From positions 11,454 to 75,453 of the forward strand of contig CAZQIV010000015.1 of NCBI GenBank assembly GCA_964593705.1: 64,000 bases of DNA, read 5' to 3'. Source of the DNA: an uncultured Lentimicrobiaceae bacterium. GTDB lineage: Bacteria; Bacteroidota; Bacteroidia; Bacteroidales; 4484-276. The translations under genes and the position numbers were made by a program. The notes below the pieces were generated by a model. The model worked only from the letters and a program-made list of their open reading frames with translations, did not search any database and had not been told where the DNA came from. Of the stretch, positions 4,118-62,455 are shown one piece after another; the stretch's first letter is position 1, and every line of letters begins with the position of its first letter.

Positions 4118-4182
4118 ATCGAATTACACTAATTAATCAAATTATTACCTGCCTTTGGCAGGTACAATTCGTGTAATTCGAT
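4118..4182. repeat. Nested palindrome upstream of hydE
   Basis: A 12-bp outer stem (atcgaattacac / gtgtaattcgat) encloses an inner hairpin (acctgcc-ttt-ggcaggt). The word 'catcgaattac' recurs in the tandem repeat at 39344-39642. Confidence 0.7.
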
Positions 4183-16175: not shown

Positions 16176-16204
16176 GACAGGTTCCCACACACGAAATACA
16201 AAAA

Positions 16205-16235
16205 GCACCCTTCGCTATGGAGGGTGCTTTTTTTT
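16205..16235 (+). terminator. Rho-independent terminator after skp
   Basis: Stem gcaccct-(9 nt)-agggtgc followed by T8, starting 30 nt after the stop codon. Confidence 0.75.
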
Positions 16236-16275
16236 GTTTTTCTTTGTTTATGATTTTTGTTACACTAAAAATAAA

Positions 16276-16848: not shown

Positions 16849-16943
16849 TATTTGCAAAATAATCTGTGTTTATCTTTACCCATCTGTGGTGGGTAAAAAC
16901 TAAAAAATATCTGATGTTTCGCTTATGCAATGCATGGCGTTTT

Positions 16944-17681: not shown

Positions 17682-17757
17682 TCCTTCACCATGGAGGGTG
17701 CTTTTTTTTTATTAAATAAATCCCTACCTTTATCCCCTAATTTAAGCACTCAAAACC

Positions 17758-19178: not shown

Positions 19179-19193
19179 TAAAATTATAACATT

Positions 19194-21560: not shown

Positions 21561-21589
21561 AAAGCATTTAAATTATGAACTAACGCTAA

Positions 21590-22390: not shown

Positions 22391-22502
22391 CTGTATATAA
22401 ATTAGCCACTGATGCACGGATAAAATTGAATACTGTTTTATTCATGTCAGCAGGTGTTAATAATTAAAATGGATATTTCAAATTGTAATTATTTAGTTGT
22501 TT

Positions 22503-27390: not shown

Positions 27391-27988
27391 AGTCACCCCG
27401 TGAATTCTGGTGTCGGATGTACAATTCCTTAGGGATTTTGCCATCTTTTCACAAAGCTTTCACGGGGTGACTTAGGGAATGTGAAAAGTCATCCGATGAA
27501 TAGTGCATAAGCAAATGACACTATACTCATGGAAAAATTATAGCTTCCGGGAGTAATTCATCGGATGACTAAAAACCGGTAATCCTGGAAAAGCCATCCG
27601 ATGAATAGTGCATAAGCAAATGACACTATACTAATTGAAAAATTACAGCTTCCAGGAGTTATTCATCGGATGACTGAACACCGGTAATCTGGAATAGTCA
27701 CACCGTGAATTACCCTTGGACACAGCACTTTTCGCAAAAAGTAAGGTGCTGCTGCCCGGCAGTATTCACGGTGTGACTAAAAACCGGTAATCCTGGAAAA
27801 GTCATCCGATGAATACTGCTTAAGCAAATATCACTTTTCGCATGGAGACATTGAAACTCCCGGAAGTTATTCATCGGATGACTAAAAACCGGTAATCCTG
27901 GAAAAGCCATCCGATGAATAGTGCATAAGCAAATGACACCTTACGCATGGAGACATTGAAACTTCCAGGAGTAATTCATCGGATGACT
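27391..27988. repeat. Tandem array of six ~83-bp hairpin units (REP/BIME-like)
   Basis: Units at 27391-27472, 27488-27570, 27592-27675, 27696-27778, 27800-27883 and 27905-27988. Each has a 14-16-bp stem (e.g. agtcatccgatgaat / attcatcggatgact) around a ~50-nt loop. Units 2-6 are separated by the linker aaaaaccggtaatcctggaaa or a close variant (units 1-2 are joined by a different 15-nt linker). Confidence 0.9.
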
Positions 27989-31265: not shown

Positions 31266-31530
31266 AATATCATTGTTTTAATTTTTTGATAAGATAATTC
31301 ATTTTTATTCATGAAGTTTTGAAATGAAGTCTGTTAATTTTAATGTGTTTTGAAATAACAACAAAAGTAAATATTTTTTTTAGATGTTTTAGTGTGAGGG
31401 TGTTATTGCTCGGTGCTGATAGATGGAAAGCGTCAGCCAGCTGGCTGAGATAAATCCACCTGCGATGAAATAAATCCTCCTACGTTGGAGGATGGAAAGT
31501 TTCACTTCCGTTTTTCCATGCGTTCGGAAA

Positions 31531-31614
31531 AGTCATCCGATGAATAGCGCTTAAGCAAATGACACCTTGCGCATGGGAAAATTACTGCTTCCGGGAGTAA
31601 TTCATCGGATGACT
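31531..31614. repeat. Solo copy of the 27391-27988 hairpin unit
   Basis: agtcatccgatgaata...taattcatcggatgact followed by the linker fragment gaacaccggt. It overlaps the 3' end of the degraded gene at 31602-32052. Confidence 0.85.
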
Positions 31615-32052
31615 GAACACCGGTCTTTTCTTCTTAACAATACTATTATTGTGATAACAGTTGCAATGGTAATCATAATAATTGCCCAGATTTCAGGGGA
31701 TATACCAAAGCTGTTCCAGTTATATTTGATGATGCCAGGCGAAAATCCAGGCCATGTTGGCCAGCGAAGAAACGAAAAATCAAATATCAATCCGGTACAA
31801 AAACTTGTTTCGCGGGATGTTGCTTTCGCCAAAAATTCCTTTCGACTAATACACCGTAAAAAGGATGAGCAGTAAATAAATGATGCCCCATATCGAAAAT
31901 GTGAATCCGGCAAGTATAAAAAGGCTCGGGTACAAATCGGATAATTCTCCGGTGTTTTTCCCGGCGATGGGCAAGGCATTGGCCAAAATATTTATGGTGA
32001 TCACCCCAAGTAGCCCAATGATATTAAGTATTTGATAGGTTTTTATTTTCAT
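31602..32052 (-). pseudogene. Trp-rich small membrane protein (TspO-like?), frameshifted and 3'-truncated
   Basis: 'MKIKTYQILNIIGLLGVITINILANALPIAGKNTGELSDLYPSLFILAGFTFSIWGIIYLLL' stops at 31846. The hydrophobic W-rich continuation is in another frame (31602..31979) and runs into the repeat. Family assignment is weak. Confidence 0.35.
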
Positions 32053-34439: not shown

Positions 34440-34720
34440 ATTTACAACATTGCAGCTGCTTTAGCGCAGGCTGCGGCAGGCCCGCCTTGCCTAGCGAAGG
34501 CTCTTGTTTCCGGCGTGGCAGGCCCGCCTTGCCGAGCGAAAGCCCAGGCTGCCGGCGCGGCAGGGATTGAAGCGACACCCCAACGAAGTGGCTGCTGATG
34601 TTTTTGTTGGTGGGTGGCGGCTGACAGATCCCGCAACTGCGGGACCGCACCACCTACAAAAACACAGCAGGCACAAGTTGGGTACAGCGAAAAGCCCGCC
34701 AGGCCGCCCAAAAAAAACCA
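34440..34720. repeat. GC-rich block of 'cccgccttgcc'-family modules
   Basis: ggcaggcccgccttgcc occurs twice. A further hairpin is ggtggcggctgacagatcccgcaactgcgggaccgcaccacc. Local GC is far above the surrounding sequence. The track ORFs here are Ala/Gly/Pro-rich repeat translations. Confidence 0.6.
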
Positions 34721-35175: not shown

Positions 35176-35834
35176 ATGAAACACATTACAATATTTTGGT
35201 TTCGCAGATATTTGCGAATAGAAGATAATGCGGGTTTATACCGTGCATTGTAAGAAAGGGGAAATGTGCTTCCCCTTTTTATTTTTGATGCGGATATTAT
35301 TGATAAGCTGGAGTATAAAAAGGATAAACGTATTTCGTTTATTTATGATCAGGTGAAGCGGATTAAAAAGGAGTTTGAAGCGAAGGTATCTTCACTATTG
35401 GTTAAATGCGGCAGGCCTTGTGCAAAGGAAAAACCGGCTACCCTATTGTGGATGCCGGAATGCATCAACTGAACGAAACCGATTTTATGCACAACAGGGT
35501 GCGGATGATTGTGGCCAGTTTCCTGGTGAAGCATCTGTTGATCGACTGGCGCTGGGGTGAAGCTTATTTTGCCAAAAAATTGCTGGACTTTGAATTGTCA
35601 TCGAATAACGGGGGGTGGCAGTGGGCAGCAAGTTCGGGATGCGATGCTGTGCCATATTTCAGGGTTTACAACCCGGAACGGCAAACCAAAAAGTTTGACC
35701 CTGATTTAAAATATATCAAAAGGTGGGTTCCTGAATTTCTGGATCTGAATTATCCCAAACCAATCGTTGATCATAAATTTGCCCGCGAAAGGGTGCTGAA
35801 AGAGTATAAACGAGCTTTGGCTGAGGGGGAGTAA
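35176..35834 (+). pseudogene. phrB: Deoxyribodipyrimidine photolyase remnant
   Basis: N-terminus 'ITIFWFRRYLRIEDNAGLYRAL' followed by an in-frame TAA, then 'VLPLFIFD...'. It jumps in another frame to the C-terminal FAD-binding part ('[33 protein letters not shown]...WQWAASSG'). Only ~660 bp remain of a gene normally ~1.3 kb. Confidence 0.8.
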
Positions 35835-35891
35835 AAGTGGGAGAAGTTGTGGGGTTGTTGAGTTATTGTCGGTCTTTAAAGTAACTTTTAT

Positions 35892-36007
35892 AAAAATATA
35901 AGATTTCAGATTAACCCGCCTTGCCGCCTGGTGTGGCTCATGCTTAGGCGAGGCAGGCGATTTTAGATTTAAGATGTTGGTGATACTCAATAAAATCTAA
36001 AATCTCC
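35892..36007. repeat. 116-bp module, copy B (identical to 8988-9103)
   Basis: Same 116-nt string in the same orientation, here without the attagtg-type terminal repeats. Confidence 0.9.
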
Positions 36008-36181
36008 TCCATAGGAGTCCTTCGGGCGATCGACTGCCTTGACGACTCTTGAGCTATTTTGGGCAACTCGCTTTGCCATCAAGGCGAGCTATTCTGGTTA
36101 ATCTTCTACGTAGGAGTTCTTCGGACATTCTAAAATTATTTAGAAGGCCGGTAAGTTACAAAACTGTTTGTCGGGGTTGAA

Positions 36182-38238
36182 TTATTTCTTCGAATCGGCT
36201 GCCATGATATCCAGGAACGTATCTTCGTAGTATTCCATTACTTGCACAGAACCGACTTTGGAAAAATGGTCAACATCGCTGAAATAGATATTATTCCCCA
36301 CCTGGCTATTGCATGTGCCATCTTCGCAGAAAGGTTCAGATGGGTCGATAAAATAGAAGTTATCTTTAGCTTCGAAATAATCCTTCATGAAATTATTCAT
36401 ATCTATGGCCGATTGCCCTTCCTGAAACGAATTTGAAACAGGTGAAATAAATGACAGGTAGGAGGGCTTAAGTAACTTATCGATGTAATTTAAATTCCCT
36501 GCCCGAACAGGAGATTCGCCGATGATGATAATTTTCCTGTCCTTTCCTAAAACATTCCTAAACTTTTCTATTTTTTCGCAAAGTAGATGATAGCCATCCT
36601 TTCTTTCTAATAAATCAGGATCGATTTCTTCGCCGGTTTTTTCATCAATTGCTAAACAGGTCGAAAACAGACGAAACCTCCAATAATAGCTAAGAACCAG
36701 TGGAGCACCCGGGTTTTGTTCCAGTAGCTTCATTTTTGATCTTATTACCGAATCGGCATCAAGTGTACATTTGTCATTGGTCGAAACCATCTCAGGCAAA
36801 ACAAAACAACTCACATAAGAAATATGCACTTTCATGCCATGTTTTTTCACCAGTATCGAATCCAGTCCGGCCGCAAAATGCCCCGAATGGCTGTCGCCCA
36901 GCCACACCATATCAATGGTGTCCCTGGGGTTTTGTTTGTTTTCTATTTCCGATTCAAATTTATAATATGCCCCACCCCAATTGGTATAGTGATATTTAAT
37001 GGGAACGCCGATTTCTTCGATCAGTTCAAGGTTCTTATCATCAAGCCTCCATATCCAGCCCTCATTACCTGTAACATCTTTTTTAATGGCATAAGATCCT
37101 CCAATAAAAAGCAAAAAGATAAAGCCCATCTTAGCGTAATCCAGTTTGATGTTTTTAAATGTATTCCGCCTGAATGGAGTTTCGTAATATTTGTAAACAA
37201 TTAACGAAATTCCAATGGATAGCAAAAATAAAACCAGGCCGCTGAAAAAATTTAAAGGTTGGTCGTAAAGGTGTTTGTAATAAACAACAACCGGCCAGTG
37301 AAACAGGTAAATTGTATAACTGGCATTTCCGATTTCACGGAGCATATTGTTATAAAAAAACCATTTAAAATATTTGGATTGCGGTGCAATAATGAGCAGC
37401 GAAATTCCCAGGCAGGGAATGATGTTTAAAATGCTTAGAAAGGTAAGTCTATCGTCAAATAAAATTCCCGGTAAAACAATGAGCAGAAAACCCAAAGTTA
37501 TAATCATGCCTTTGGTTTTTTCGCTTTTTATGTGGATTTCGGGAAGAAAAACCAGGAGTGCCCCCATAAGGAATTCGTAAGTTCGGAAGGGTAGCAAATA
37601 AAACAGAAATGACTGCAAATCGGTTGGGGATTCGGGATGTCGGGAAAAGAAATTCAGGATGTTTTCAGAAATGCCATTGGCATTGATGTATAAAGTTGCT
37701 ACAATTGTTATTATCGATAATAGTAGGATGAGGATGTAGGTTTTGAATTTGCGAAATCCTTTCAAAACAAGAACAATGTAAGAGGCCAGATAAAATAATA
37801 TTGTTCCTCCACCGAAAGCGACCAGGTATGCAGCAAGGGTTTTAATTTGGCTGCTGTATCAAAATAGCCTGACTCTCCGAGAAAGTAAAAATTTGACAAA
37901 GCAATCGATCCCGCGAAAATCGAATCGGTGAGCCCGATAAGGTCTGATGGGGATAAAAGCAGAAATCCAAAAATAAAAACAAAAATTGACGTTAAAAAAT
38001 AAGATGGCAATAGTCTTTTGACCCTACGATAATAAAACCTGGTAAAATTAAATGCCTGGGTGCTTGTATATTCGTGGTTAATGTTGCGGGTAATTAAAAA
38101 CCCGCTGATGACAAAAAACACATCCACACCCAAAAATCCTCCTTTAAAAAAGGTAATGTCGAGGTGGAAAAGCAATACAAGCAATACTGCAAGCGCTCTT
38201 AACGAATCAATATGATCGAGGTATTTTAATTTGGGCAT
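36182..38238 (-). pseudogene. Acyltransferase-3 (OafA/YrhL-like) with C-terminal SGNH domain, split by a frameshift
   Basis: The 158-aa ORF 37762..38238 ('LDHIDSLRALAVLLVLLFH...SLSVEEQYYFIWP') and the 527-aa ORF 36182..37765 (more transmembrane helices plus an SGNH-like tail) together equal one typical ~685-aa protein. The junction lies in a T-run, and the downstream ORF has only a TTG start. Confidence 0.7.
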
Positions 38239-38884
38239 GGAAAAAAGTTAAGCCTTTATGCCGGCTAATTTTGGAGAGATAAAAAAAGGTTAACTAATCT
38301 GAACATTCTGCAATAATAGTATTGTTAAAATTTTAATATCAAGGTTTAGCGATAACAAATTGTAATTTCTGATTATTTTGAAACGCAAAAGTAGAATTAT
38401 ATTTTTTATAGCAGAAATTTGTTGAAGATTTGCAGCGTGTGCAAAGGCTGATCTTTTCGAGAGTTAACCCAAAATTTTTGGGCATAATGAGGCAATGTTG
38501 AGTGAAGCAGCCTGCCCCGTTTTTTCGGGGAAATCCCGCCCTTGCGGGAACATTATGGAATAGATTTCTCCCTCCAAAACTTGCTATGCTGCGTTTTTCA
38601 AGTACTAATGACAACTTTTTGCAAAACGTTGAAAAACTAACTGTTAAACAGACCCCCGCCTTGCTCGCCTCGCTGGAGTCTTGGCGAAGCGGGCCGCGAG
38701 ACAGGTAATCAACTTGTTACAAAAACTTGTCATTGGTAGGAGCTTGCGACTGAAAGACCTGTCCAGCAACATGTACTCCAGCTTCTTACCAATACTTGCC
38801 ATTAGTATATTTAACAAATTGATGCTCTATTAAACATTTTTGCATAGATTTTTCTTTTATCCTTGTAAACTAAAAATTAATACA

Positions 38885-39343: not shown

Positions 39344-39642
39344 AGTCTTTCATCGAATTACGCGGATTAAACGGATAAGAGAAATTGTGCATCCGGTGCA
39401 TCCGGTGCATCCGATACATCCGATGATAGTCTTTCATCGAATTACGCGGATTAAACGGATAAGAGAAATTGTGCATCCGGTGCATCCGATCAATCCGATG
39501 ATAGTCTTTCATCGAATTACACGGATTAAACGGATAAGAGAAATTGTGCATCCGGTGCATCCGATCAATCCGATGATAGATTATGATGATGGTTTTTCAT
39601 CGAATTACATGGATTAAACGGATAGGATACATTGTACATAAG
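39344..39642. repeat. Tandem repeat, ~75-bp unit x 3 plus a degenerate fourth
   Basis: Copies at 39344-39427 (84 bp, with an extra gtgcatccg), 39428-39502, 39503-39577 and a degenerate 39578-39642. The unit is agtctttcatcgaattacRcggattaaacggataagagaaattgtgcatccggtgcatccgatcaatccgatgat. Confidence 0.88.
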
Positions 39643-49417: not shown

Positions 49418-49574
49418 AAAAAATACTAAAAAGACCGATACTAATGAATCCCCGATCATCATCCAAAAAAACAATAACCCTTGATCCCGATAGCTATCAG
49501 AATTATCGGGGTAACAATTAGCAATATCTTATTACCAATAACCATTAACTAATAACTATTAACCAATAACCCTT

Positions 49575-51425
49575 TTACCCCTTCTTTTTCCTGTGCAATT
49601 GAATAATCGAATTTAGCATGGCCTCCGTTTTTGATGCCCCTTCACCCAGCAAAAAACCAATTTGTTGTACCATCCCCAAATTCTGGTCGATAACTTCGGT
49701 TACCCTTTGAATAATTTGTTCGTTACGCACTTCAGGCGAAAACATATCCCTTACTATACCTCCAACCACTTTTTTATCTTTTATCGAAAATACACTTAGA
49801 TTTAAAAATGCTTCATCAATCTTAACATCCCTGCTCAGGATATTTTCGCCGGTAACAAGCACATTTTGAAACACTTTATAAAACTGCACAGGCACCAGGG
49901 TTTTAAGGTCGGCACCCCGAAGGCCGGGTATTATTTCATCTATGTCGCGGGCTTCGTCACCAAGGATTTCAATAAAACTGCGGTTTGAAGAAGTGATTTT
50001 TAACTTGTGATCGACAATAACCACGCCCGAAGGAATCTGATTCATGATGGCACGCGAAGTCTCCAGCTTGTCGTTTGTAAGTTCAAATTCTAACAGACGT
50101 TCTTTAAGTTCCTTTTTAAGATGCTCGATTTCTTTCTCTGATTTCGATTTCGAGTTGCGGAGTGTTTCGATGTATTTATTTTTATTTTTATTATTAAAAT
50201 CCAAACACATATCAGTACGTGTAATTCCATTTGCCACAGCTTTTGCAAACGACTGGCAGGAATCAAAGCCGCAACTGGTACACATCCCGGTTGATTCCCC
50301 GGATTTATCAAGCAAGGTCAAAATTTCATCCACCCTCGAGGCGGCAGGTTCTTCTGCACGCTGATCATCAGATTTAAACCGGCAATTCAGATTTAAGTCC
50401 TTGAATTTCTCCATTTCAAGCTGCCATTTCTTTTCATCCAGATTTTTTATTCTACGTTGGGTATAGTCTAAAACCTGGGCTGTCCTTAAATGTTTGTCAC
50501 CCTTTGGCGACATGCCCGGACCCATCATACATCCTTCGTTGTAAAACACATTAAAATGCTTCTGTACCCGTTCAGTGTTTTTTTCAAACGATTCGATGGC
50601 ATTCAATGAGGATATTTTTCCTTCGGCGCTTATTACCCTTCCATTAAGAAAACTTTGATCGATTGAAGCTGCTTCCAAAATGCCGCTGCTTAGTGGGTAT
50701 AATGAACCAAGATTGCCATGGGGCGGATCAAAATCAGAATATTCGAGTTGGCTTTCGTGTATGTCTTTGTCATCGAAAAGCTGCCTTAACTCGGCAAAAG
50801 TGAGCGCTGCATCAACCTCGGAATTTTCGTCAAATTCGCCCGACCAGAGTTTGGCCGCGATGCATGGCCCAACAAACACAGTTTTGGTTTGCTCGCCATA
50901 TACTGATTTTGCAACCCTTGCAGTTGCATCCATTGGCGAAATAACAGGGGTTAGATTTTTGGTGAGGTCGGGATGAAACTTACGAACCAACTCTACCACA
51001 GCCGGACAATTGGCGGTAATGTAATATTTTCCCCTGCTTTGTTCAAAAAGGGCTTTGTACTTTTGTGAAACAAGGTCAACACCAAAGGAAACATCCAGTA
51101 CAAATTCAAACCCGATCTGTCTTATCATCTCAACAAATTTGCGATAGTCAGTAATATCAGGAAATTCAGCTGAAACACTAGGGTCAACTAAAGCCGCAAC
51201 TTTATGCTCTGATTTTAGCAGGCTGTTAACTCTTGATTTTGAATCATAATATCTAATCCCATCACTTGAGCAGGCAGTAATACATGAACCACACCCAATG
51301 CATCGTTCAGGATCAATTTCGGGATGATCCTTGCCTACTTTTACAATAATGGCATGTACAGGGCAAACTCTTGCACAATGTAAACAATCAGTACATTTTT
51401 CAGGTATGATTTCGATCAGTGCCAT
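49575..51425 (-). CDS. hydS: Sensory-type [FeFe]-hydrogenase paralog with C-terminal PAS domain (HydS/HfsB-like)
   Basis: Two ferredoxin-type CX2CX2CX3CP motifs and an H-domain with 'ITANCPAV' and 'FVGPCIAAK'. Also carries the CX2CX4CX16C motif 'CTSCGFDSC...(16)...C', a coiled coil and a PAS domain ('IPSGVVIVDHKLKITSSNRSFIEILG'). Confidence 0.85.
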   Translation of the reverse strand: MALIEIIPEKCTDCLHCARVCPVHAIIVKVGKDHPEIDPERCIGCGSCITACSSDGIRYYDSKSRVNSLLKSEHKVAALVDPSVSAEFPDITDYRKFVEMIRQIGFEFVLDVSFGVDLVSQKYKALFEQSRGKYYITANCPAVVELVRKFHPDLTKNLTPVISPMDATARVAKSVYGEQTKTVFVGPCIAAKLWSGEFDENSEVDAALTFAELRQLFDDKDIHESQLEYSDFDPPHGNLGSLYPLSSGILEAASIDQSFLNGRVISAEGKISSLNAIESFEKNTERVQKHFNVFYNEGCMMGPGMSPKGDKHLRTAQVLDYTQRRIKNLDEKKWQLEMEKFKDLNLNCRFKSDDQRAEEPAASRVDEILTLLDKSGESTGMCTSCGFDSCQSFAKAVANGITRTDMCLDFNNKNKNKYIETLRNSKSKSEKEIEHLKKELKERLLEFELTNDKLETSRAIMNQIPSGVVIVDHKLKITSSNRSFIEILGDEARDIDEIIPGLRGADLKTLVPVQFYKVFQNVLVTGENILSRDVKIDEAFLNLSVFSIKDKKVVGGIVRDMFSPEVRNEQIIQRVTEVIDQNLGMVQQIGFLLGEGASKTEAMLNSIIQLHRKKKG

Positions 51426-51427
51426 AA

Positions 51428-51676
51428 TTATTTCAATAACTCTTCTTCGAGGATTTTCAGAATTTCATCTTCACCTACACGCTCATAGCGATGGTCGTTG
51501 ATTTTGAAACCGGGCCCATTTTCACAATTCCCAAAACAGTGTTTTCCTTTAAAGTTAACCTTATGTGTAAGTTGATTGTCTTCCAAAAACTTTTTCACAA
51601 TATACACCATTTGCTTATTGCCTCTTGCAAAACAAGAACTCCCAAGGCAAATTATCAGATCTTTCTTTTTTAACAT
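51428..51676 (-). CDS. Thioredoxin-like [2Fe-2S] ferredoxin (NuoE-fold, HfsA-like)
   Basis: 82 aa with a CX4C...CX3C pattern ('CLGSSC'...'CFGNC'). Its stop lies 3 nt from the hydS start. Confidence 0.72.
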   Translation of the reverse strand: MLKKKDLIICLGSSCFARGNKQMVYIVKKFLEDNQLTHKVNFKGKHCFGNCENGPGFKINDHRYERVGEDEILKILEEELLK

Positions 51677-51708
51677 ATCCTAACGAAGACTCAAATTTCT
51701 TTAACCTG

Positions 51709-51862
51709 ATTAATTCACAAACTCATTGAATTTGTGAATTAATCACCGAAGGCCGAAAATATTTATTTAAAATATTTTCGAGGGTTAATCCTCGAATTTC
51801 CTTTGGAAATTCGGCTCTGCAGGCTAAAAAGCCTGCAGAGTGAAAAATTCATGAATTTTTCA
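51709..51862. promoter_or_regulatory. Five consecutive palindromes in the divergent hydS / hydCBA control region
   Basis: P1 51709-51743 (attaattcacaaa-N9-tttgtgaattaat). P2 51754-51780. P3 51793-51813. P4 51815-51840 (ctctgcaggc-taaaaa-gcctgcagag). P5 51841-51862 (tgaaaaattca|tgaatttttca). A Bacteroidota -7-like box TAATTTTG lies at 51950-51957, 35 nt before the hydC ATG. Confidence 0.5.
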
Positions 51863-51992
51863 GATTAAAAAGCAAAGATCATAAAAAATATTTTAATAAT
51901 AGTTTAATGTTAAAAATTTAACAATGTGAAACAATTAACAAAAAAGTAGTAATTTTGTCATTGTTAAGCATAACTATTTAATTACTAATTGA

Positions 51993-52457
51993 ATGAATAA
52001 GATAGAGGAGGTGCTTCAAAACTTTCCGAATCACGATCGGGAAAATTTGCTCCCGATTTTGCAGGAAATACAAAAAGCCGAAGGATACATTTCGGAAGAT
52101 GCCGTAGTAAAAGTTGGGAGTTATCTAAATATTCCTACCAGTAAAGTGTATGCAGTATCCACCTTTTACGACCAATTTAGGTTTACAGATAAGGCAAAAT
52201 ACCAAATACATCTTTGCAATGGTACTACCTGCCATCTGGAGGGTGCAGGTAACTTGTTGAAGGCATTTGAAAAGCAACTGAATATTTCGTCAGGACAATT
52301 GACAAAAGACAAATTGTTTGGCATAGCTACCAAACCTTGCATGGGCGCTTGTGGTATGGCTCCGGTTGTTAAAGTAAATGAAAAATTTTATACAGGTTTT
52401 ACTTTGGACAGGGTACAAGAGCTAATTGCTTCGATAAAAGAAAGCGAGGGGGTGTGA
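51993..52457 (+). CDS. hydC: [FeFe]-hydrogenase NuoE-like [2Fe-2S] subunit
   Basis: 154 aa with 'HLCNGTTCHLEGA' and 'KPCMGACGMAPV'. Overlaps hydB by ATGA (52454-52457). Confidence 0.9.
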   Translation: MNKIEEVLQNFPNHDRENLLPILQEIQKAEGYISEDAVVKVGSYLNIPTSKVYAVSTFYDQFRFTDKAKYQIHLCNGTTCHLEGAGNLLKAFEKQLNISSGQLTKDKLFGIATKPCMGACGMAPVVKVNEKFYTGFTLDRVQELIASIKESEGV

Positions 52458-54397
52458 TGGTAACAGAACCCGATTCAAAATATTTAATCGAAAATGTAGT
52501 ATCGAATTTCACACGCGAATACGATGAAAAGGTTCAAAAAAAGATGAACTTTTTGTTGAGGAGAAATTTGAAAAAGCCTGTGATTTTTGTCGGAACCGGT
52601 ACCTGTGGCATTGCAGCAGGGGCAGATCAAACACTTGTAGCTGTTGAAACGTATTTAAAAAAAAATCAATTAGATGCCGATATAGTTGAAGTTGGCTGTA
52701 TTGGACTGTGTAGTGCAGAGCCCCTGCTCGACTTTCAAACACCAGGAAAAGCACGGGTGAGTTTTCAGAAAGCAGGCCATTCAAAAGTTGAAACCATCCT
52801 TGATGAATGTTTTCATAACCATATTTCGGGCAATAATGTTTTAGGTCAGGTTAGGAATGATGAACATGAGTATTGGGAAGGTATTCCCATCATCAATGAT
52901 TTGCCTTTTTTTAAAAAACAAAAACGGGTGTTGCTGTTTGACTGTGGCGAAATTGCACCAAACAGTATTAATGAATACATGGCCCGGGAAGGCTACATGG
53001 CTTTTGTCAAAACCATTTTAAATTACCCCCCCGACATGGTCTGCAATATGATCGAACAAAGTGGCCTCAGGGGAAGGGGTGGTGGGGGTTTTCCAACTGC
53101 CAAAAAATGGAATGTGGTGAGGTCGATCGGTGGAGAACAAAAGTACCTGGTTTGCAATGCCGATGAAAGCGATCCCGGAGCCTATATGGATCGGGCGCTT
53201 GTTGAGGGAAATCCCCACAGGCTGATTGAAGGAATGGCCATTGCCGCGTATGCCATCGGGGCTACGAAAGCTTATGTTTACATCCGCTCTGATTATTCGG
53301 TTGCAGTAAAGCGTTTAAAAAGCGCTTTGGAACAGGCAAAAGAAAATGGGTTTTTGGGAAGGAACATATTTGGCAGCGGAGTTAATTTGCAGATATTTTT
53401 ACGCGAAGGCCCGGGTGCTTTTGTGTGTGGTGAAGAAACAGCATTATTGAAAAGCCTGGAAGGCCGGCGGGGTATGCCACGATCAAAACCTCCCTATCCA
53501 AGCGAAAAAGGATTATTTGGTAAGCCTACGATTGTAAACAATGTGGAGACCCTGGCAAATGTTCCCTTGATTATTTTGAATGGTCCCAAGTGGTTTAAGG
53601 CCATCGGAACACCCGAAAGTGCAGGCACAAAACTCTTTGCCCTGGCTGGTGATACGATAAATACAGGAATTATTGAAGTTCCTTTTGGCATCGGCCTCGA
53701 TGAGATAATTTACGAAATTGGCGGAGGACTGAAAGATGAAAAAATGCTTAAAGCTGTCCAAATCGGTGGGCCTTCGGGCAGCCTGATTCCCGAACAAAAT
53801 ATCGATATAAAAATAGATTACGATGCTTTCAAAGCTGCTTACCTGATTATGGGTTCCGGTGGTCTTGTGGTAATGGACAACAGGAAGTGCATTGTTGATA
53901 CTGTTAAGTATTTTATTGATTTCCTCCAGAAAGAATCTTGTGGGAAGTGCATCCCCTGCCGCGAAGGCACCAACAGAATGTACAAGATTTTGGATGCCAT
54001 TACACAACGGCCTGATGAGGATAATGGCCATGAGTCTCTTATGCGATTTAAGGGTATTTTGCAACTCGAAAGCCTGGCTGAAGTAATCAGCGAAACCTCA
54101 CTTTGTGGCTTGGGTAAAACTGCTCCAAATCCTGTTCTGTCGGCGCTCAAATGGTTCAGGGACGAGTTTGAAGAACACATTTACGAAAGGAAATGCAGGG
54201 CCAATGTTTGTAAGGATTTACGTACTTATATAATCAGTGCCGAACGGTGTACCGGATGCATGGTGTGTTTGAAAAAATGCCCGGAAGATGCCATCACAGG
54301 TTCTGCCAGGCAAACACATTTTATCAACCAGGCAAAGTGTACAAAATGCGGTGTTTGCTATGATGTATGTAAATTTTCAGCTATTGATATTTTATAA
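52454..54397 (+). CDS. hydB: [FeFe]-hydrogenase NuoF-like flavoprotein subunit (NAD(P)H-binding)
   Basis: 647 aa. N-terminal thioredoxin-like 2Fe-2S, FMN site 'GLRGRGGGGFPT', 'CGKCIPCREG', and two C-terminal 4Fe-4S motifs ('CTGCMVCLKKCP', 'CTKCGVCYDVC'). Confidence 0.92.
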   Translation: MMVTEPDSKYLIENVVSNFTREYDEKVQKKMNFLLRRNLKKPVIFVGTGTCGIAAGADQTLVAVETYLKKNQLDADIVEVGCIGLCSAEPLLDFQTPGKARVSFQKAGHSKVETILDECFHNHISGNNVLGQVRNDEHEYWEGIPIINDLPFFKKQKRVLLFDCGEIAPNSINEYMAREGYMAFVKTILNYPPDMVCNMIEQSGLRGRGGGGFPTAKKWNVVRSIGGEQKYLVCNADESDPGAYMDRALVEGNPHRLIEGMAIAAYAIGATKAYVYIRSDYSVAVKRLKSALEQAKENGFLGRNIFGSGVNLQIFLREGPGAFVCGEETALLKSLEGRRGMPRSKPPYPSEKGLFGKPTIVNNVETLANVPLIILNGPKWFKAIGTPESAGTKLFALAGDTINTGIIEVPFGIGLDEIIYEIGGGLKDEKMLKAVQIGGPSGSLIPEQNIDIKIDYDAFKAAYLIMGSGGLVVMDNRKCIVDTVKYFIDFLQKESCGKCIPCREGTNRMYKILDAITQRPDEDNGHESLMRFKGILQLESLAEVISETSLCGLGKTAPNPVLSALKWFRDEFEEHIYERKCRANVCKDLRTYIISAERCTGCMVCLKKCPEDAITGSARQTHFINQAKCTKCGVCYDVCKFSAIDIL

Positions 54398-54429
54398 AGT
54401 AAAATTCATGAAGTTTCAAGTAAACGAAC

Positions 54430-54518
54430 ATAACGAATAATACCGGGCTTCGCTCGAGCATCCTCGAAAAGTTACGAAAATCAAGATTTTCTACTTTTCG
54501 GGACAATTAACCAATAAC
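54430..54518. repeat. Composite hairpin element E1, 'empty' form, in the hydB-hydA spacer
   Basis: ataacgaataataccgggcttcgctcgagcatcctcgaaaagttacgaaaatcaagattttctacttttcgggacaattaaccaataac. It is homologous to 56701-56797 and, in reverse orientation, to 61160-61271 and 62300-62432. Confidence 0.85.
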
Positions 54519-54531
54519 TCCAAAGCTTCAC

Positions 54532-56253
54532 ATGATCTTCAATATCGAAGTAAATAATAAAACCATCAGAGCAAAGAAAGGAGACACCATTCTTGAAACA
54601 CTCAGGAGAAATGGTATTTCGGTGCCAACGCTTTGCAACATGGAGACATTCTCGCCTACGGGAGCTTGCCGGATTTGTGTGGTTGAAGTAGATGGCCACG
54701 ATGACCTGATTCCTGCCTGCTCGCACCCTGTGGATGAGTGGATGAAAATACATACTCATTCTCCAAAGGTGATAAGGGCAAGAAGAACGATTGTTGAATT
54801 ATTGCTTTCCAGCCATCCGGATGATTGCCTTTACTGCATCCGAAATAAGAATTGTGAATTGCAAACCCTGGCCGAAGAATTGGGAATTAGGGAGCGTCGT
54901 TTGCCGATTGTAAAAAAGAATCTGAAAAAAGACCCCTCCTGTTCCAGCATAGTGCGCGATCCGGATAAGTGCATTCTTTGTGGAAGGTGTGTGCGGATGT
55001 GTAAAGAGAAAATTGGGGTTTCCACCTTCGATTTTATCGGAAAAGGAATGAAAACAATTGTTGGCCCAACATTCAACAATCTGCTCAATATTTCCAATTG
55101 CATCACCTGCGGGCAGTGCATCATGGTTTGCCCAACGGGAGCATTACACGAGAAAGAACATATAGGTCAGGTGCATGAGGCCTTGCAAAATCCAGAGAAA
55201 TACACAGTTGTCCAGATTTCGCCAACAATTTCAGTTTCGCTGGCCGAAGAATTTAATGTGAAATCAGGTAAGGAAATGGATGGACTTTTGGTAGCAACAC
55301 TTCGGAAGATCGGTTTTAAAAAAGTTTTTAAAACAGCTTTTGCTGCCGATATTATGGTGTTGCAAATCGTTGAAGAACTGGTAAGCCGGATTGAGCAAAA
55401 TGAAAACCTCCCCATGTTTTCGAGCGATTGTCCGGCATTTATCAAGTATATGGAAGAATACCATCCCGACATGCTTCATCATATTTCGGTTTACAAATCA
55501 CCACAACAAATCATGGGCAGCCTTATCAAACATCATTTTTCGCGTCAACAAAAGATAAAGGCTGAACAGATTCATTCAGTATCGCTTATGCCCTGTACTG
55601 CAAAAAAGTTTGAAGCACAACGCGAGGAAAACACGCACAAGGGTATCCAGGATGTGGATTCGGTGCTTACTACACGTGAGCTTGCACGACTAATTCGTCT
55701 CTATGGATTGGATATTCAGCAGGCCGAACCTGAATTAGCTGACAGCCCTTTTGCCATTCGCAGTTCGGCGGGTAAAATAATTGGAGCAAGCGGGGGGGTG
55801 GCCGAGGCGGTTTATCGCACACTTTATCACACCATGACAGGTAAAAATCTTTTAAACTTCAAAATTACAGCCTTGCGAAGCAACAAAAATGTGAAAGAAC
55901 TCCATAGCAAAATTGGAAAAACCAAGATTGGTATTGCCGCGGTAAATGGACTTGAAAATGCTAAGGATCTCATACGACAAATTAAAGCAGGCAGGGACGA
56001 TTTACAATTTATCGAGGTAATGGTTTGTCCGGGAAGTTGCATTAACGGTGGAGGACAACCCATATCAAAGAATAAAGAGGCCGTAAAAGCCAGGATGAAA
56101 TCATTGTATGATATCGATGAAAAGGAGTCGATAAAAGTATCGTATAAAAATCCGGCAGTGAAAGATCTGTTTGAAAAATACGATGGAAAGGAGAAAGAAT
56201 CATTCAGGGAAAAACTCAAAACAAGTTACAGAAAAAGGGATGTATTGCTATAA
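54532..56253 (+). CDS. hydA: [FeFe]-hydrogenase large subunit (M3 architecture) with non-canonical L1 motif
   Basis: 573 aa. N-terminal plant-type 2Fe-2S, a His/Cys 4Fe-4S, and 2x[4Fe-4S] ('CILCGRCVRMC', 'CITCGQCIMVCP'). H-domain motifs are 'PMFSSDCPAF', 'LMPCTAKKFE' and 'EVMVCPGSCINGGGQP'. Confidence 0.9.
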   Translation: MIFNIEVNNKTIRAKKGDTILETLRRNGISVPTLCNMETFSPTGACRICVVEVDGHDDLIPACSHPVDEWMKIHTHSPKVIRARRTIVELLLSSHPDDCLYCIRNKNCELQTLAEELGIRERRLPIVKKNLKKDPSCSSIVRDPDKCILCGRCVRMCKEKIGVSTFDFIGKGMKTIVGPTFNNLLNISNCITCGQCIMVCPTGALHEKEHIGQVHEALQNPEKYTVVQISPTISVSLAEEFNVKSGKEMDGLLVATLRKIGFKKVFKTAFAADIMVLQIVEELVSRIEQNENLPMFSSDCPAFIKYMEEYHPDMLHHISVYKSPQQIMGSLIKHHFSRQQKIKAEQIHSVSLMPCTAKKFEAQREENTHKGIQDVDSVLTTRELARLIRLYGLDIQQAEPELADSPFAIRSSAGKIIGASGGVAEAVYRTLYHTMTGKNLLNFKITALRSNKNVKELHSKIGKTKIGIAAVNGLENAKDLIRQIKAGRDDLQFIEVMVCPGSCINGGGQPISKNKEAVKARMKSLYDIDEKESIKVSYKNPAVKDLFEKYDGKEKESFREKLKTSYRKRDVLL

Positions 56254-56700
56254 AAGAGTATGGAAATTGGAGAATAAATAGAAAAGAAAACTTGATTATC
56301 AATAATCAAAAACGATTAATCTGCCGCTGGCCGGAAAAGCTCAACAACTAATAAAAGGTACTACTGCGAATTTAGTGGAAAGTAAAATATTAATCATGAG
56401 TAGTAAAATAGATTTCTCAGTCCCCGAAGTGTCGGGGCAGGCTGCAAACTTCTTCGAAATGACAGGGCTTTGGCGGGTTTGTTGGGGTGGTTGAAAGTGG
56501 GCGCTTCGCGCCCACTTTCAACCACCCCTTGTGGAGTCCTATCCTTGTGTTTTCGAACCGCCAACTGGCGGTGAGACCTACCTCGCCAACACCATTGCTT
56601 ACACTAACGGCCCGCTTCGCAGCGAGGCGAGCAAGGCGGGAATCTGTTTACGGTGATAGTAATTATTTACATCCACGAAAATGGTAATAGAACCTAATAT

Positions 56701-56797
56701 AATAACGAATAACTAATAATGCCGAGCTTTGCTCGGGCATCCTCGAAAAATTACGAAAATCAAAGATTTTCTATTTTTCGGGACCAATAACCATTAA
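56701..56797. repeat. Composite hairpin element E1, 'empty' form, upstream of the hydrogenase-kinase gene
   Basis: ataacgaataactaataatgccgagctttgctcgggcatcctcgaaaaattacgaaaatcaaagattttctatttttcgggaccaataac..., in the same orientation as 54430-54518. Confidence 0.85.
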
Positions 56798-56875
56798 CGA
56801 ATAACCAATAACCATTAACGAATAACCATTAACCAATAACCATTAACCAATAACGAATAACTAATAACGAACACC
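56784..56875. repeat. Degenerate heptamer microsatellite (NAWTAAC x ~13)
   Basis: caataac cattaac gaataac caataac cattaac gaaataac cattaac caataac cattaac caataac gaataac taataac. It ends 4 nt before ATG 56879. Shorter runs of the same words occur at 49531-49572, 54505-54518 and 32243-32275. Confidence 0.85.
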
Positions 56876-56878
56876 CCA

Positions 56879-58867
56879 ATGAGTCACTCGAAACGTAAAC
56901 AATTGGTATTTACTGTAAAAGACCGCTGCAGGGTATGCTACACCTGCGTAAGAGAGTGTCCTGTAAAGGCCATTCGTATTGAAAATGGCCAGGCCGAAGT
57001 GATCAATGAGCGCTGCATTGGCTGCGGTAATTGTACCATAGTGTGCAGCCAGGGCGCTAAAGTTTTTTTGCAAACAGGTGATGATTTAAAAACCTTGCTA
57101 CAGGAAGGGCAAAAAGTAGCAGCAATCATTGCCCCAAGTTTTCCGGCTGAATTTACCGAAATAGATGATTACAAAACCTTTGTCGGGATGGTAAGGAAAT
57201 TAGGTTTTAACCTGGTTTGCGAGGTAGCTTTTGGTGCAGATATGGTAGCGAGGGAATATAAAAAAATGCACCATGAGCGGGGTAAGCTTGGGAGCATCTC
57301 ATCTGATTGTCCCGCGATTGTATTTTATATTGAGCATTACCATCCCCACCTGGTAAAGGATTTGGCAAAAGTTGTTTCGCCTATGGTAGCCATGACACGG
57401 GTTGTAAAAGAAAAATATGGCAGCGATACCAAAGTTGTTTTCATTGGCCCCTGCATTGCTAAAAAAGCTGAGTCGGATGAAGTTGATGAGTCTATTACTT
57501 TTAAGGAATTAAGAGATCTTTTTACAGCAAACAATATTACCCCAAAAAACACCGACTCCACAGACTTTGATCCGCCCCATGCAGGAAAAGGAGCAATTTT
57601 CCCTGTAAGTCGCGGATTGTTGCAAACAGCAGGTATTTCAGAGGATATCATTAACGAAAATGTAATTGTTGCTTCAGGGAGGGTTAATTTCAGGGAGGCT
57701 GTCAGGGAATTTGAAAACGAAGAAGAAGATAAGCACCACCTAGAGCTCTTATGCTGTCGGGGTTGTATTGTTGGTCCGGGAATGTCGAAACGAGGTTCGA
57801 GATACAGCCGACGTACCAAGGTGAGTAATTACGTTAGAAAAAGATTGCAGGACATCGACAAGAGTGAATGGGGAAAAAATGTAGAAAAGTACAGCACACT
57901 CAATTATCAGCAGCAGCACGATGTTCGGGATCGCAGGCTGCCGGTGCCAAGCGAAGACCAAATCAGGGAAGTATTGGAAACTATTGGGAAATTTGAAGAA
58001 AAAGATCATTTAAATTGTGGTTCCTGCGGTTACGATACCTGCCGCGAACATGCCATTGCCATTGTGCAGGGACTGGCCGAGGATGAAATGTGTCTTCCCT
58101 ACAGCATCGAAAAATTACATCAATCCATTAGTGACCTTAACACCTCAAATAAAAACCTGGCTTCAACAAGACAGGCATTGAAGCAATCAGAAAAACTCGT
58201 AAGCCTGGGGCGCCTTTCAGCCGGAATTGCGCATGAGCTTAACAATCCCCTGGGTGTAATTACCATGTACAGCAACATTCTTAAAGATGAAGCGGCCGAA
58301 GACGATCCGGTCCGTCAGGATCTTGATCTCATTATAGAACAGGCTGCAAGATGCAAGAAAATTGTTGGTGGCTTACTCAATTTTGCACGGAAAAGTCAGG
58401 TTAACCTTAGCCCAACCAATATTATCGATTTTGTAAAACAAAGTCTAACATCCGTAATTAAACCTGAGAATATCATCATTGATTTTCAAAGTGAAATATC
58501 AAATCCAATGGCCAATATTGATACCGACCAGATGATGCAGGTGCTAACCAACCTTGAAAAGAATGCGGTGGAAGCCATGCCCGATGGTGGAATACTTAGT
58601 ATAACTCTTAATAATGATGCTGAACAAATTTTTATCAATATTGGCGATACAGGTACAGGTATTTCAAAAGAAAATATGGAACATGTTTTCACGCCATTTT
58701 TTACTACAAAAGGAATTGGCCAAGGTACAGGGCTCGGCCTGCCGTTGGTTTATGGAATAGTAAAAATGCACAAGGGGAAGATTGATGTCGTTTCAAATGC
58801 CGATCCTGAATCCGGGTCAACAGGAACTACTTTTAAAGTAAGCTTTCCGCGAGCTTTGGAGAATTGA
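56879..58867 (+). CDS. Sensory [FeFe]-hydrogenase H-domain fused to a histidine kinase
   Basis: 662 aa. 2x[4Fe-4S] ('CRVCYTCVRECP', 'CIGCGNCTIVCS'). H-domain 'ISSDCPAIV', 'FIGPCIAKKAE' and 'LLCCRGCIVGPG'. CX2CX4CX16C motif ('CGSCGYDTC...C'). Then HisKA 'SAGIAHELNNPLG' and HATPase_c boxes ('NLEKNAVEAM', 'IGDTGTGI', 'GTGLGLPLV'). Confidence 0.87.
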   Translation: MSHSKRKQLVFTVKDRCRVCYTCVRECPVKAIRIENGQAEVINERCIGCGNCTIVCSQGAKVFLQTGDDLKTLLQEGQKVAAIIAPSFPAEFTEIDDYKTFVGMVRKLGFNLVCEVAFGADMVAREYKKMHHERGKLGSISSDCPAIVFYIEHYHPHLVKDLAKVVSPMVAMTRVVKEKYGSDTKVVFIGPCIAKKAESDEVDESITFKELRDLFTANNITPKNTDSTDFDPPHAGKGAIFPVSRGLLQTAGISEDIINENVIVASGRVNFREAVREFENEEEDKHHLELLCCRGCIVGPGMSKRGSRYSRRTKVSNYVRKRLQDIDKSEWGKNVEKYSTLNYQQQHDVRDRRLPVPSEDQIREVLETIGKFEEKDHLNCGSCGYDTCREHAIAIVQGLAEDEMCLPYSIEKLHQSISDLNTSNKNLASTRQALKQSEKLVSLGRLSAGIAHELNNPLGVITMYSNILKDEAAEDDPVRQDLDLIIEQAARCKKIVGGLLNFARKSQVNLSPTNIIDFVKQSLTSVIKPENIIIDFQSEISNPMANIDTDQMMQVLTNLEKNAVEAMPDGGILSITLNNDAEQIFINIGDTGTGISKENMEHVFTPFFTTKGIGQGTGLGLPLVYGIVKMHKGKIDVVSNADPESGSTGTTFKVSFPRALEN

Positions 58868-58911: not shown

Positions 58912-58986
58912 CCCAAACGCTACTGATTTTTAGCGCTTCTCCCTTTAGGGTCTGGGGTAAAAAGCGCTAAAAATCAGTAGTTTGGG
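58912..58986. repeat. Long hairpin with another module in its loop
   Basis: The stem cccaaacgctactgatttttagcgctt / aagcgctaaaaatcagtag-tttggg encloses ctccctttagggtctggggt, a module also seen at 61022-61045. Confidence 0.8.
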
Positions 58987-61077: not shown

Positions 61078-61150
61078 AAACACTATTTAAGTGAGAGAGA
61101 AAATATAATGTGTATCAGGGTATTTTTCCAAGTCAACAGTCTTTGCCAAC

Positions 61151-61280
61151 TGTGGACTGCCAATCCCGAAAAGTAGAAAATTTCAGAATTTCGTAACTTT
61201 TCGAGCCCGCCTTGCCGCCAGCATAGGCTTTTGTTTAGGCGAGGCAGGGATGCACGGGCGAAGCCCGGCACTGTGGACTG
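61151..61280. repeat. E1 composite (reverse orientation) carrying a 43-nt nested insertion
   Basis: cccgaaaagtagaaaat...ttcgtaacttttcgag | cccgccttgccgccagcataggcttttgtttaggcgaggcagg (61206-61248) | gatgcacgggcgaagcccgg. It is flanked by tgtggactg on both sides. Confidence 0.85.
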
Positions 61281-61340
61281 ATTTTTAAACAACAAAGGTT
61301 CACAAAAATTAAAGTAGAACAAAATATTAATGAAGCAAGC

Positions 61341-62279
61341 GTGAAAGTATTCAGAGACATTGAAAATCTTCCAGCCATCAGCAATTGTGTTGTTACAACC
61401 GGTTCCTTCGATGGAGTGCATATTGGCCATCAGGTGTTAATTGACAGGCTCAATGAGCTGGCCAGGACTATTGGCGGCGAATCCGTGCTCATCACTTTTT
61501 ATCCGCATGTGCGAAAAGTGCTCTACCCGGAAACCAAAGGTAAAGATCTGGAGATGATTAATTCGCAGAGCGAAAAAATTGAACTGCTCGAAAAAACCGG
61601 GCTGGATAACCTGGTGCTCATCAATTTTACACTTGAATTTTCAAAAACATCAGCCGAAGATTTTGTGCGGAAATTACTGGTAGGTAAGTTGGGGGCCAGG
61701 ATTATTGTTGTAGGCTACAACCATTATTTTGGTCATAATAAAGAGGGGAATTACGTTAAGTTGATAAAATTGGGGAAAGAGATCAACTTTGAAGTCGTGG
61801 AAATTCCAAAGCAGGAACTTGAGAAAGAAACAGTGGGCTCTACAAAAATCCGTAAGTCGCTCAAAAATGGTAAGATAATGCACGCCAATGCTTACCTCGA
61901 CCACATTTACTTTATCCACTCCGTTTTTTGTGTGGGTAGTGAGCTCTATAGTAATCTGGGGTTTAAAACTTTTGTGGTAAAAATTGAAGAAGACAGCAAG
62001 CTAATTCCTCCTGACGGAATTTATGCTATCAGGGCCGAAATTGATGGCCTTATCTCAAAAGGCATGATGCTCAATAATTACCATGGAACATTTATACACC
62101 CGGAACTCAAAAATGCGGTAGAAATATACTTGTTTGAAACCGGCCTTGACTATTGCAATAAATTCGGAAAAGTATTTGTACACAAGGAGATGAGCAGAAC
62201 AATTCAGCTAAACGATAAAGAAAAACTTCAAAGTCAGATGGTAACTATTAGGTCAGAAATTGAAGAACTAATATATTAA
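61341..62279 (+). CDS. ribF: Bifunctional riboflavin kinase / FAD synthetase
   Basis: 312 aa with 'TGSFDGVHIGHQ', 'GYNHYFGHNKEG' and 'STKIRKSL'. The start is GTG 61341. Confidence 0.9.
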   Translation: MKVFRDIENLPAISNCVVTTGSFDGVHIGHQVLIDRLNELARTIGGESVLITFYPHVRKVLYPETKGKDLEMINSQSEKIELLEKTGLDNLVLINFTLEFSKTSAEDFVRKLLVGKLGARIIVVGYNHYFGHNKEGNYVKLIKLGKEINFEVVEIPKQELEKETVGSTKIRKSLKNGKIMHANAYLDHIYFIHSVFCVGSELYSNLGFKTFVVKIEEDSKLIPPDGIYAIRAEIDGLISKGMMLNNYHGTFIHPELKNAVEIYLFETGLDYCNKFGKVFVHKEMSRTIQLNDKEKLQSQMVTIRSEIEELIY

Positions 62280-62289
62280 TTTGGTACTA

Positions 62290-62455
62290 CAGTGGACTGT
62301 GAATCCCGAAAAATAGAAAATCTATGATTTTCGTAATTTTTCGTGCCCGCCTTGTTCGCCTCGCTGCGAAGCGGGCCGCCAGTGCAGGCTTTTGTATAGG
62401 CGAGGCAGGGATGCACGGGCAAAGCCCGGCACTGCCAACTGTGGACTGCCAACTG
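62290..62455. repeat. E1 composite (reverse orientation) carrying a 64-nt doubly nested insertion
   Basis: The framework is the same as 61151-61280. The insert at 62346-62409 equals the 43-nt module plus a further 21 nt (ttcgcctcgctgcgaagcggg) inside it. It is flanked by gtggactg words. Confidence 0.85.

Follow-up and report, generated by a model that had tools for sequence, protein, structure and literature searches.

How do hairpins of a few tens of nucleotides come to sit precisely inside one another? The question is raised by the sequences on either side of ribF in an uncultured Lentimicrobiaceae bacterium, in a 64,000-nt stretch of contig CAZQIV010000015.1 (the window). An earlier note, made from the letters alone, had described there four copies of a framework, here called E1, two with contiguous halves and two in which a palindromic module, M1, separates the halves, and all of its coordinates and sequences for these copies were confirmed.

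Hairpin modules in the window and in related genomes

The left arm of E1 (CCCGAAAARTAGAAAAT) has four exact matches in the window, at 54486(-), 56766(-), 61165(+) and 62305(+), against a chance expectation of 0.06, and its right part (GATGCNCGRGCRAAGCCCGG) occurs at the same four loci with 0-1 mismatch (chance expectation 0.00). The two halves are contiguous in both copies on the (-) strand, and in the copy upstream of ribF the M1 at 61206-61248 separates ...TTTTCGAG from GATGC (Table 1). E1 consists of a 41-nt imperfect hairpin, followed by GATG and a second hairpin of one of two kinds: short (cNcgRgc-GAA-gcYcgg), or long and then an inverted relative of hairpin 1, which makes such copies REPIN-like inverted doublets. 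The hairpin is maintained by compensatory changes: 1424 of 1442 stem cells are Watson-Crick, and one stem pair varies by double changes among G-C (55), A-T (44) and T-A (2). The stem mismatches (G·T 6 versus A·C 3) are too few for a strand asymmetry to be read from them. At least 61 loci with the E1 hairpin were retrieved from species-representative genomes, almost all of them in Lentimicrobiaceae or Bacteroidales MAGs, and neither E1 nor M1 was present in the viral contigs searched.

Table 1. Positions of E1, M1, S21 and associated features in the window, and of hairpin blocks that the window has in addition to the related loci L147 and L107.
Feature	Position	Strand	Remark
E1, junction empty	54441-54503	-	orthologous to empty E1 in L064
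E1, junction empty	56720-56783	-	within ACCAATA heptamer array; array alone in L064 and L069
E1 upstream of ribF, G-C subfamily, TCCCG...CGGCA	61164-61270	+	M1 at central junction
M1, 43 nt, CCCGCCTTGCC...GGCGAGGCAGG	61206-61248	+	between CGAG and GATGC
ribF (FAD synthetase / riboflavin kinase)	61341-62279	+	between both filled E1 copies
E1 downstream of ribF, A-T subfamily, rare CGTG variant	62304-62431	+	M1 holding S21
M1 with nested S21, 64 nt	62346-62409	+	same composite and loop variant in a different E1 at L118
S21, 21-nt near-palindrome TTCGCCTCGCTGCGAAGCGGG	62355-62375	+	after position 9 of M1 5' arm
M1-type element outside any E1	56577-56640	-	S21 (56611-56631) at usual internal site
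M1 without S21, inside TIR-MITE (8957-9165)	9011-9053	+	identical copy 35915-35957
Two tandem M1-like units, 42 nt each	34481-34564	+	
Minimal 21-mer host with S21 bearing 9-nt central insert	38655-38705	+	extra nesting level
Extra hairpin block	4027-4243		
Extra hairpin block	6190-6387		
Extra hairpin block	8966-9624		
Extra block, five consecutive hairpins	51700-51863		intergenic region otherwise highly conserved
Extra hairpin block	around 58912-58986		

M1 is composed of an outer 21-nt palindrome and a 22-nt loop module. A context-blind scan of metagenomes for the M1 pattern yielded 76 matches, which reduce to about 69 distinct copies, many coming from JGI Ga0307990/Ga0307991, a sample that holds the window's own strain (L145, from this sample, is 100% identical to the window over 6974 nt). 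About 26 of the ~69 copies occupy the E1 junction, TTTTCG(A/T)G-M1-G(A/G)TG, in a single orientation throughout; about 10 lie within a TIR-MITE, about 10 in the context agacc-M1-tctcag and about 4 in heptamer arrays, the remainder being tandem copies. The E1 hosts of M1 vary in subfamily, in the type of the second hairpin, and in the presence or absence of M3 (a module of roughly 30 nt after GGATG, seen only inside E1) and of S20 (a 20-nt module in the loop of hairpin 1). All eight combinations (8/8) of junction state, M3 and second-hairpin type were found, identical 43-nt copies of M1 occur in four structurally different E1 hosts, and one M1 loop subfamily, usual where M1 lies in the MITE, turns up at the E1 junction as well. 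The left flanks of M1 (CGAG, CGTG, TTAA, GACC/GATT, ATAA, CAGG) share no conserved tetra- or pentanucleotide.

S21 is identical to the outer 21-mer of M1 at 16 of 21 positions (by eye) and directly follows CCCGCCTTG in 14 of 19 copies, across M1s of every context class; it is inverted once at this usual site (L124), and one copy stands alone at an E1 junction and one elsewhere. A lone 21-mer of the S21 family was found at the exact E1 junction in L050, within a sample selected for E1. S21, the L050 unit and a minimal hairpin, CCCGCCTTGCCGCGAGGCAGG (L053), agree at about 16 of 21 positions and form one 21-nt palindromic family. The earlier note had placed the 21-nt insert in a family with further members in the window; the family does recur, at 38660 and 56611, but not in an independent context, as these copies occupy the same position in M1-type hosts. 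It had also counted three levels of nesting, of which the nesting stands and the depth is exceeded, e.g., by the 9-nt insert at 38655: the full order is heptamer array, E1, outer 21-mer, S21 or 22-nt loop module, and 9-nt insert. In L114 and L134, CCCGCCTTG and S21 are followed directly by the flank, and these are not simple insertions; together with the confinement of M3 to E1, such variants indicate that deletion and recombination also shape the mosaic. The comparable nested hairpins proposed for other parts of the window indeed fold as nested stems (z -1.7 to -8.4, with 5 of 6 segments at -4.2 or below).

Empty and filled sites among relatives

Orthologous loci, obtained via RibF homologues, allow filled and empty states to be compared. 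The E1 downstream of ribF is shared with L064 (RibF 88% identical), where it lies at L064:10988-11053 with the same backbone, the AAA loop and the CGTG variant found in only 10 of 103 E1 copies; CGTG and GATGC are contiguous there, whereas the window holds 64 nt at this junction. No E1 is present on either side of ribF in L066, L069, L141, L142 and L143, and the upstream E1 is missing from 6/6 orthologous loci, being unique to the window. Given the orthologous empty site in L064 and the E1-free relatives, parsimony orders the states as absent, then E1, then E1 with M1 and S21. In a sample selected for E1 and blind to M1, drawn from two related Lentimicrobiaceae genomes almost without M1, 65 of 67 junctions are empty. 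M1 is plentiful in the window's strain but close to absent from CAZGAO01 and CAZBDF01. These comparisons support the earlier supposition that the empty junction is the older state and not a deletion. A further orthologous pair, L075/L126, diverges right after the gene and offers no usable filled/empty site.

The gene itself appears to play no part in this history. Both E1 copies around ribF do lie on the + strand, as previously remarked, but the bracketing is incidental, since they belong to different subfamilies (G-C versus A-T) and only the downstream copy is common to the nearest relative. A role of ribF as cargo of a composite element is ruled out: seven relatives keep the gene in synteny, whether or not they have the repeats, and it is therefore a bystander.

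Differences of this kind extend beyond ribF. L147 and L107 come from the L064 genome, and their identity to the window is about 90%. Set against these two loci, the window carries the extra hairpin blocks listed in Table 1, and an 80-nt hairpin in L147 is missing from the window. The TIR-MITE at 6190-6387 (TAATTAGTGTC... TIRs, common to 8957-9165, 9159-9324 and 35861-36010) is flanked, relative to the empty site in L147, by a duplication of 6 nt, TAATTA. Variation between strains, which the earlier note had proposed to look for, was not found within the window's own strain: exact-protein look-ups with RibF, a response regulator and NAD kinase yielded contigs 99.97-100% identical, all of which agree with the window.

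E1, taken with one T before CCCG and CA after CGG, sits inside 7-nt tandem-repeat arrays of varied sequence. Excising T+CCCG..GGCA brings the flanks back into 7-nt phase, with a score of 0.51 (n=85), as compared with 0.17-0.33 at most phase-breaking boundary offsets and 0.44 within the flanks themselves (n=85). E1, too, has therefore been inserted precisely and has left no target duplication. What the sequences show directly is a filled/empty polymorphism that is precise, the polarity of that polymorphism, and the recurrence of the same units in different hosts.

Insertion signature and possible origins

In folding predictions, with loop positions partly read from the copies themselves, the insertion points coincide with one edge, 5' or 3', of an apical or central loop. 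Together with the fixed ends of the modules, these predicted positions bear out the earlier proposal of discrete units precisely inserted at hairpin loops or junctions. No target duplication longer than 1 nt is found at M1 or S21, and E1 also lacks one; since the TIR-MITE of the same window does show a duplication, its absence at E1, M1 and S21 is informative.

We consider it probable that E1, M1 and S21 are lineage-specific, non-autonomous hairpin elements of the Lentimicrobiaceae, whose insertion sites are the edges of loops in other palindromes. E1 (TCCCG...CGGCA), a REPIN-like double hairpin, would enter 7-nt arrays in phase and without target duplication. M1 (43 nt) and S21 (21 nt) would be smaller units with fixed ends, added later with base precision, in one orientation and again without target duplication, at the edge of an apical or central loop in a pre-existing palindrome. 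M1 would enter the centre of E1 between CG(A/T)G and GATG, and S21 the outer 21-mer of M1, its own relative, between positions 9 and 10; composites such as M1 carrying S21 would then travel as units.

We infer that an enzyme acting in trans, its gene lying elsewhere, carries out the insertion; it would recognise folded hairpin DNA, probably single-stranded, and not flanking sequence. As the earlier note had stated, the window encodes no transposase: Pfam and NCBIfam searches of all 51 window ORFs identified no such enzyme, and no integrase, reverse transcriptase or HUH protein either. The E1-/M1-bearing loci, about 1 Mb, likewise yielded no Y1/HUH protein, a weak negative given that this is a partial sample searched by phmmer, with approximate RayT, IS200 and IS608 sequences as queries, and by an HUH..Y motif. 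Clustering of the ORFs near E1 and M1 returned abundant paralogues only (TPR/PAS sensor proteins, T9SS cargo) and no nuclease or transposase. Element orientations within loci are mixed (7 same versus 9 opposite, tandem copies and the window excluded), and the lack of a shared flanking target argues against an IS200/IS605-like enzyme, as the mixed orientations may do, though not against mobility. By analogy only, a Y1/HUH (RAYT-like) enzyme, of the kind that the earlier note had suggested, would be the leading candidate for mobilisation. Bacteroidetes have their own TnpA_Y1 subclass (2.6), tied to atypical hairpins (PMC6006769), and a RAYT of this subclass is a candidate.

A bolder reading, possible but rather doubtful, is that the Lentimicrobiaceae harbour active palindromic elements of 18-22 nt, which would insert without duplication at the loop edges of palindromes and, in phase, in heptamer arrays, and would build ever larger composites from their own copies, by a mechanism outside the described transposase families and maybe shared with cyanobacterial SDRs and heptamers. 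The options for such a mechanism include a structure-specific single-strand integrase and hairpin-break repair with templated insertion.

The modules might also have no dedicated mobility at all and form a BIME-like mosaic shuffled by short-patch gene conversion, template switching or annealing of oligonucleotides at the fork, M1 having entered E1 once and later been copied to other E1s via flanking E1 homology. E1-associated M1 copies mostly belong to one loop subfamily, recombination would likewise yield all module combinations, deletion- or recombinant-like variants exist, and no transposase is found in the window or in the ~1 Mb of related loci, a partial sample. We nevertheless regard this as unlikely. 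The rare CGTG, 2 nt from the junction, is retained at the orthologous site, and the M1-with-S21 composite has its closest relative at L118, within an E1 that is of the CGAG type and bears M3, so that a conversion tract would have to match the module ends. Around S21, moreover, the shared M1 sequence extends just 9 and 5 nt before class-specific loops, which is too little for exchange by homology; in L124 an inverted S21 occupies this very site; and M1 is also found in MITE and heptamer contexts, which offer no E1 homology. It is very improbable that the hairpins are selected structured-RNA or terminator parts grown by local duplication, their repetition reflecting convergent function and not movement. 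The compensatory changes that keep the hairpins and the position of many of them just past stop codons would fit such parts, but the E1 copies of the window occur in either orientation relative to neighbouring genes, Rfam at gathering thresholds returned just a tRNA and no family matching the hairpins, and identical 43-mers at unrelated loci, together with indels between genomes 88-90% identical, point to copying and not to convergence. The hairpins may have acquired a secondary, co-opted function.

That the filled forms are ancestral, and the empty ones products of precise hairpin deletion via replication slippage across the palindrome, would accord with the proneness of palindromes to deletion and with the truncated appearance of L114 and L134. 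Against this stand the 65 of 67 empty junctions in two other genomes almost without M1 and the relatives without any E1 at ribF. M1 and S21 are flanked by a 1-nt direct repeat only, so that slippage would not exactly restore the consensus; the sole usable internal repeat, CGCC, should by reasoning give a product that is not observed, and an inverted S21 is impossible by deletion. Such a history is thus likewise very improbable. An artefact of metagenome assembly at repeats has a next to negligible probability: contigs do break at hairpin repeats, as at the ends of L140, but the differences concerned are shorter than one read, and three assemblies made independently contain the E1/M1/S21 stretch at 99.99-100% identity, L002 with a single mismatch, the agreeing sequences coming from ENA (two samples), Logan and JGI, which rules out an assembly artefact. 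Insertion of non-autonomous hairpin elements at loop edges remains the reading that we favour.

Relation to known systems and significance

Small dispersed repeats, SDR1-8, have reportedly been described in Nostoc and other cyanobacteria by Elhai and colleagues in 2008. Cyanobacterial SDRs are about 21-27 nt long, intergenic, without an encoded protein, and co-occur with heptamer tandem repeats. By analogy, they appear to be the closest counterpart of E1, M1 and S21: S21, the outer 21-mer (L053), S20 and the 22-nt loop module are dispersed non-coding units of similar size, and here too the units enter palindromes and one another precisely, and orthologous sites are found both filled and empty. 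In the HIP1 palindrome, SDR5 inserts precisely between nucleotides 3 and 4 (PMC4390886). The likeness is one of size and manner of insertion; the phylum differs (here Bacteroidales), and the units described here assemble in a REPIN-like host, E1, itself placed in phase in heptamer arrays. TAACTGA-type heptamer arrays have been reported in Cyanobacteria, Beggiatoaceae and a few Bacteroidetes (MacGregor 2015, PMC4679880). The 7-nt intergenic arrays flanking E1 (NNACTGN, ACCAATA and others) look like these TAACTGA-type/STRR heptamers, but the reports on the latter describe no hairpin elements in phase inside the arrays, as E1 is (PMC4679880).

With REP, BIME and REPIN sequences the elements share short imperfect intergenic palindromes in many copies, BIME-like mosaics of modules and the absence of target duplication, and the long form of E1 resembles a REPIN in being an inverted doublet of related hairpins. 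To our knowledge, however, unit-in-unit nesting is not a described property of REPs. REPs are recognised by a conserved unpaired 5' GTAG or CGTC tag (PMC3733652), whereas E1 starts with TCCCG and M1 with CCCGCC, and neither end bears such a tag; no RAYT was found in the window or in the partial sample of ~1 Mb of E1-/M1-bearing loci. IS200/IS605 elements and PATEs are likewise hairpin-dependent and make no target duplication, and the single-strand logic of IS200/IS605 could accommodate very small elements. In contrast with them, the elements studied here have no conserved 5' tetra- or pentanucleotide and are single near-symmetric palindromes in place of two different subterminal hairpins. The orientation bias relative to replication that marks IS200/IS605 elements might be missing as well, given the mixed orientations within loci, and the related loci sampled, in all about 1 Mb, yielded no TnpA. 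Classical MITEs (Correia, ERIC, RUP, BOX, Nezha) are 70-300 nt long, with TIRs and target duplications. They too are non-autonomous and intergenic, and sometimes nested or inserted at fixed points (ERIC, BOX modules), but E1, M1 and S21 lack target duplication, and the TAATTAGTGTC... TIR-MITE of the window provides an internal contrast.

No report of such elements in Lentimicrobiaceae was found in the literature searched. Elements of ~21 nt are, as far as we know, far under the size thought manageable by known transposition chemistries, and we know of no comparable case other than the cyanobacterial SDRs, for which a mechanism has been lacking since 2008. Elements of 18-43 nt would represent a rare kind of mobile DNA, and this lineage suits work on their mechanism by genome census and biochemistry, offering many clean filled/empty pairs between genomes 88-90% identical, fixed ends, a loop-edge target and a TIR-MITE for contrast. 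The finding ties the so far unexplained heptamer arrays to the insertion of hairpin elements. In these genomes, such hairpin regions break metagenome assemblies and inflate intergenic length, and their stepwise nesting illustrates a way in which long intergenic regions, and composites of REPIN type, can expand.

Heptamer arrays at E1 and the loops of small hairpins

In every case, both in the window and at loci L003-L063 from other genomes, copies of E1 (the REPIN-like double hairpin) are surrounded by 7-nt tandem-repeat arrays, whose units vary in sequence (ACCAATA, NNACTGN, GTCATTG and others) and which are similar to the heptamers (STRR/TAACTGA) that cyanobacteria and Beggiatoaceae carry. 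Removal of T+CCCG..GGCA, i.e., of E1, restores the phase of the array, and at the orthologous sites of two relatives (L064 and L069) the arrays are present without E1. In 6/103 E1 copies, the 20-nt module S20 sits in the apical loop of hairpin 1; the window also has S20 outside E1.

Many modules contain small hairpins, frequently with GCGAAGC or GCGAAAGC as their loop (e.g., 61253-61264, 62366-62372 and 54448-54456). This motif forms DNA mini-hairpins of unusual stability, which would be consistent with the modules folding as DNA.

Window coordinates of repeat families and of selected gene features
Feature	Window	Other loci
Heptamer arrays	49534-49571, 56783-56868, 61141-61163, 61271-61282, 62289-62303, 62432-62455	
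S20, double mini-hairpin module (TCCAAAGGAGTCCTTCGGAC)	36007-36026	L071, L075, L117, L131, L134, L137
TIR-MITE family (TAATTAGTGTC..GTC.ATAAA / TTTATGGA..GACACTAATTA)	6190-6387, 8957-9165, 9159-9324, 35861-36010	
105-nt unit, long terminal stem (GTCATCCGATGAAT..ATTCATCGGATGAC)	27483-27988, 31527-31624	
75-nt unit, tandem array, 3.6 copies	39344-39639	
Five-hairpin block, 164 nt	51700-51863	
OvoA (ovothiol synthase)	32277-34436	
[FeFe]-hydrogenase cluster (HydABC-like)	49575-58867	

TIR-MITEs and other repeat blocks

All copies of the TIR-MITE family have their TIRs in common and differ in their internal hairpin modules, the 43-nt palindromic module M1 lying inside two of the window copies. Comparison of the copy at 6190-6387 with the empty site in a related genome (L147) reveals a 6-nt duplication, TAATTA. 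The 164-nt block consists of five different hairpins in a row and is missing from the orthologous intergenic region of the same relative (L107), the rest of which is highly conserved. The 105-nt stem unit is present as 4.8 tandem repeats and one dispersed copy, and the 75-nt unit contains a 9-nt sub-repeat, GTGCATCCG, the ATCGAATTACAC motif of this array being seen again in the hairpin at 4118-4182.

Gene context

The hydrogenase cluster is accompanied by a hydrogenase-like sensor histidine kinase and response regulators. Two alpha/beta-hydrolase genes 4.65 kb apart (16178-21611; 16944-17681 and 21590-22417) share ~300 nt at 93% identity and bracket T9SS-cargo genes absent from the syntenic region of L147; the arrangement resembles an inserted or duplicated segment. 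Two possible pseudogenes lie at 35406-35834 and 36182-38238: a photolyase fragment that adjoins a MITE and is truncated to positions 45-155 of Pfam FAD_binding_7, and an acyltransferase-3/SGNH gene broken into two overlapping ORFs.

M1-like units in apparently unrelated organisms

Tandem arrays of M1-like units (CCCGCCTTG..AGGCGAGGCAGG) are found at L108 (5420-5515), L127 (2136-2605), L089 and L123, on contigs of apparently unrelated organisms, and at L123 the units lie within apparent coding sequence. Either some of these arrays may be chance matches, or the 21-mer family, which provides the outer part of M1, may be distributed beyond the Lentimicrobiaceae.
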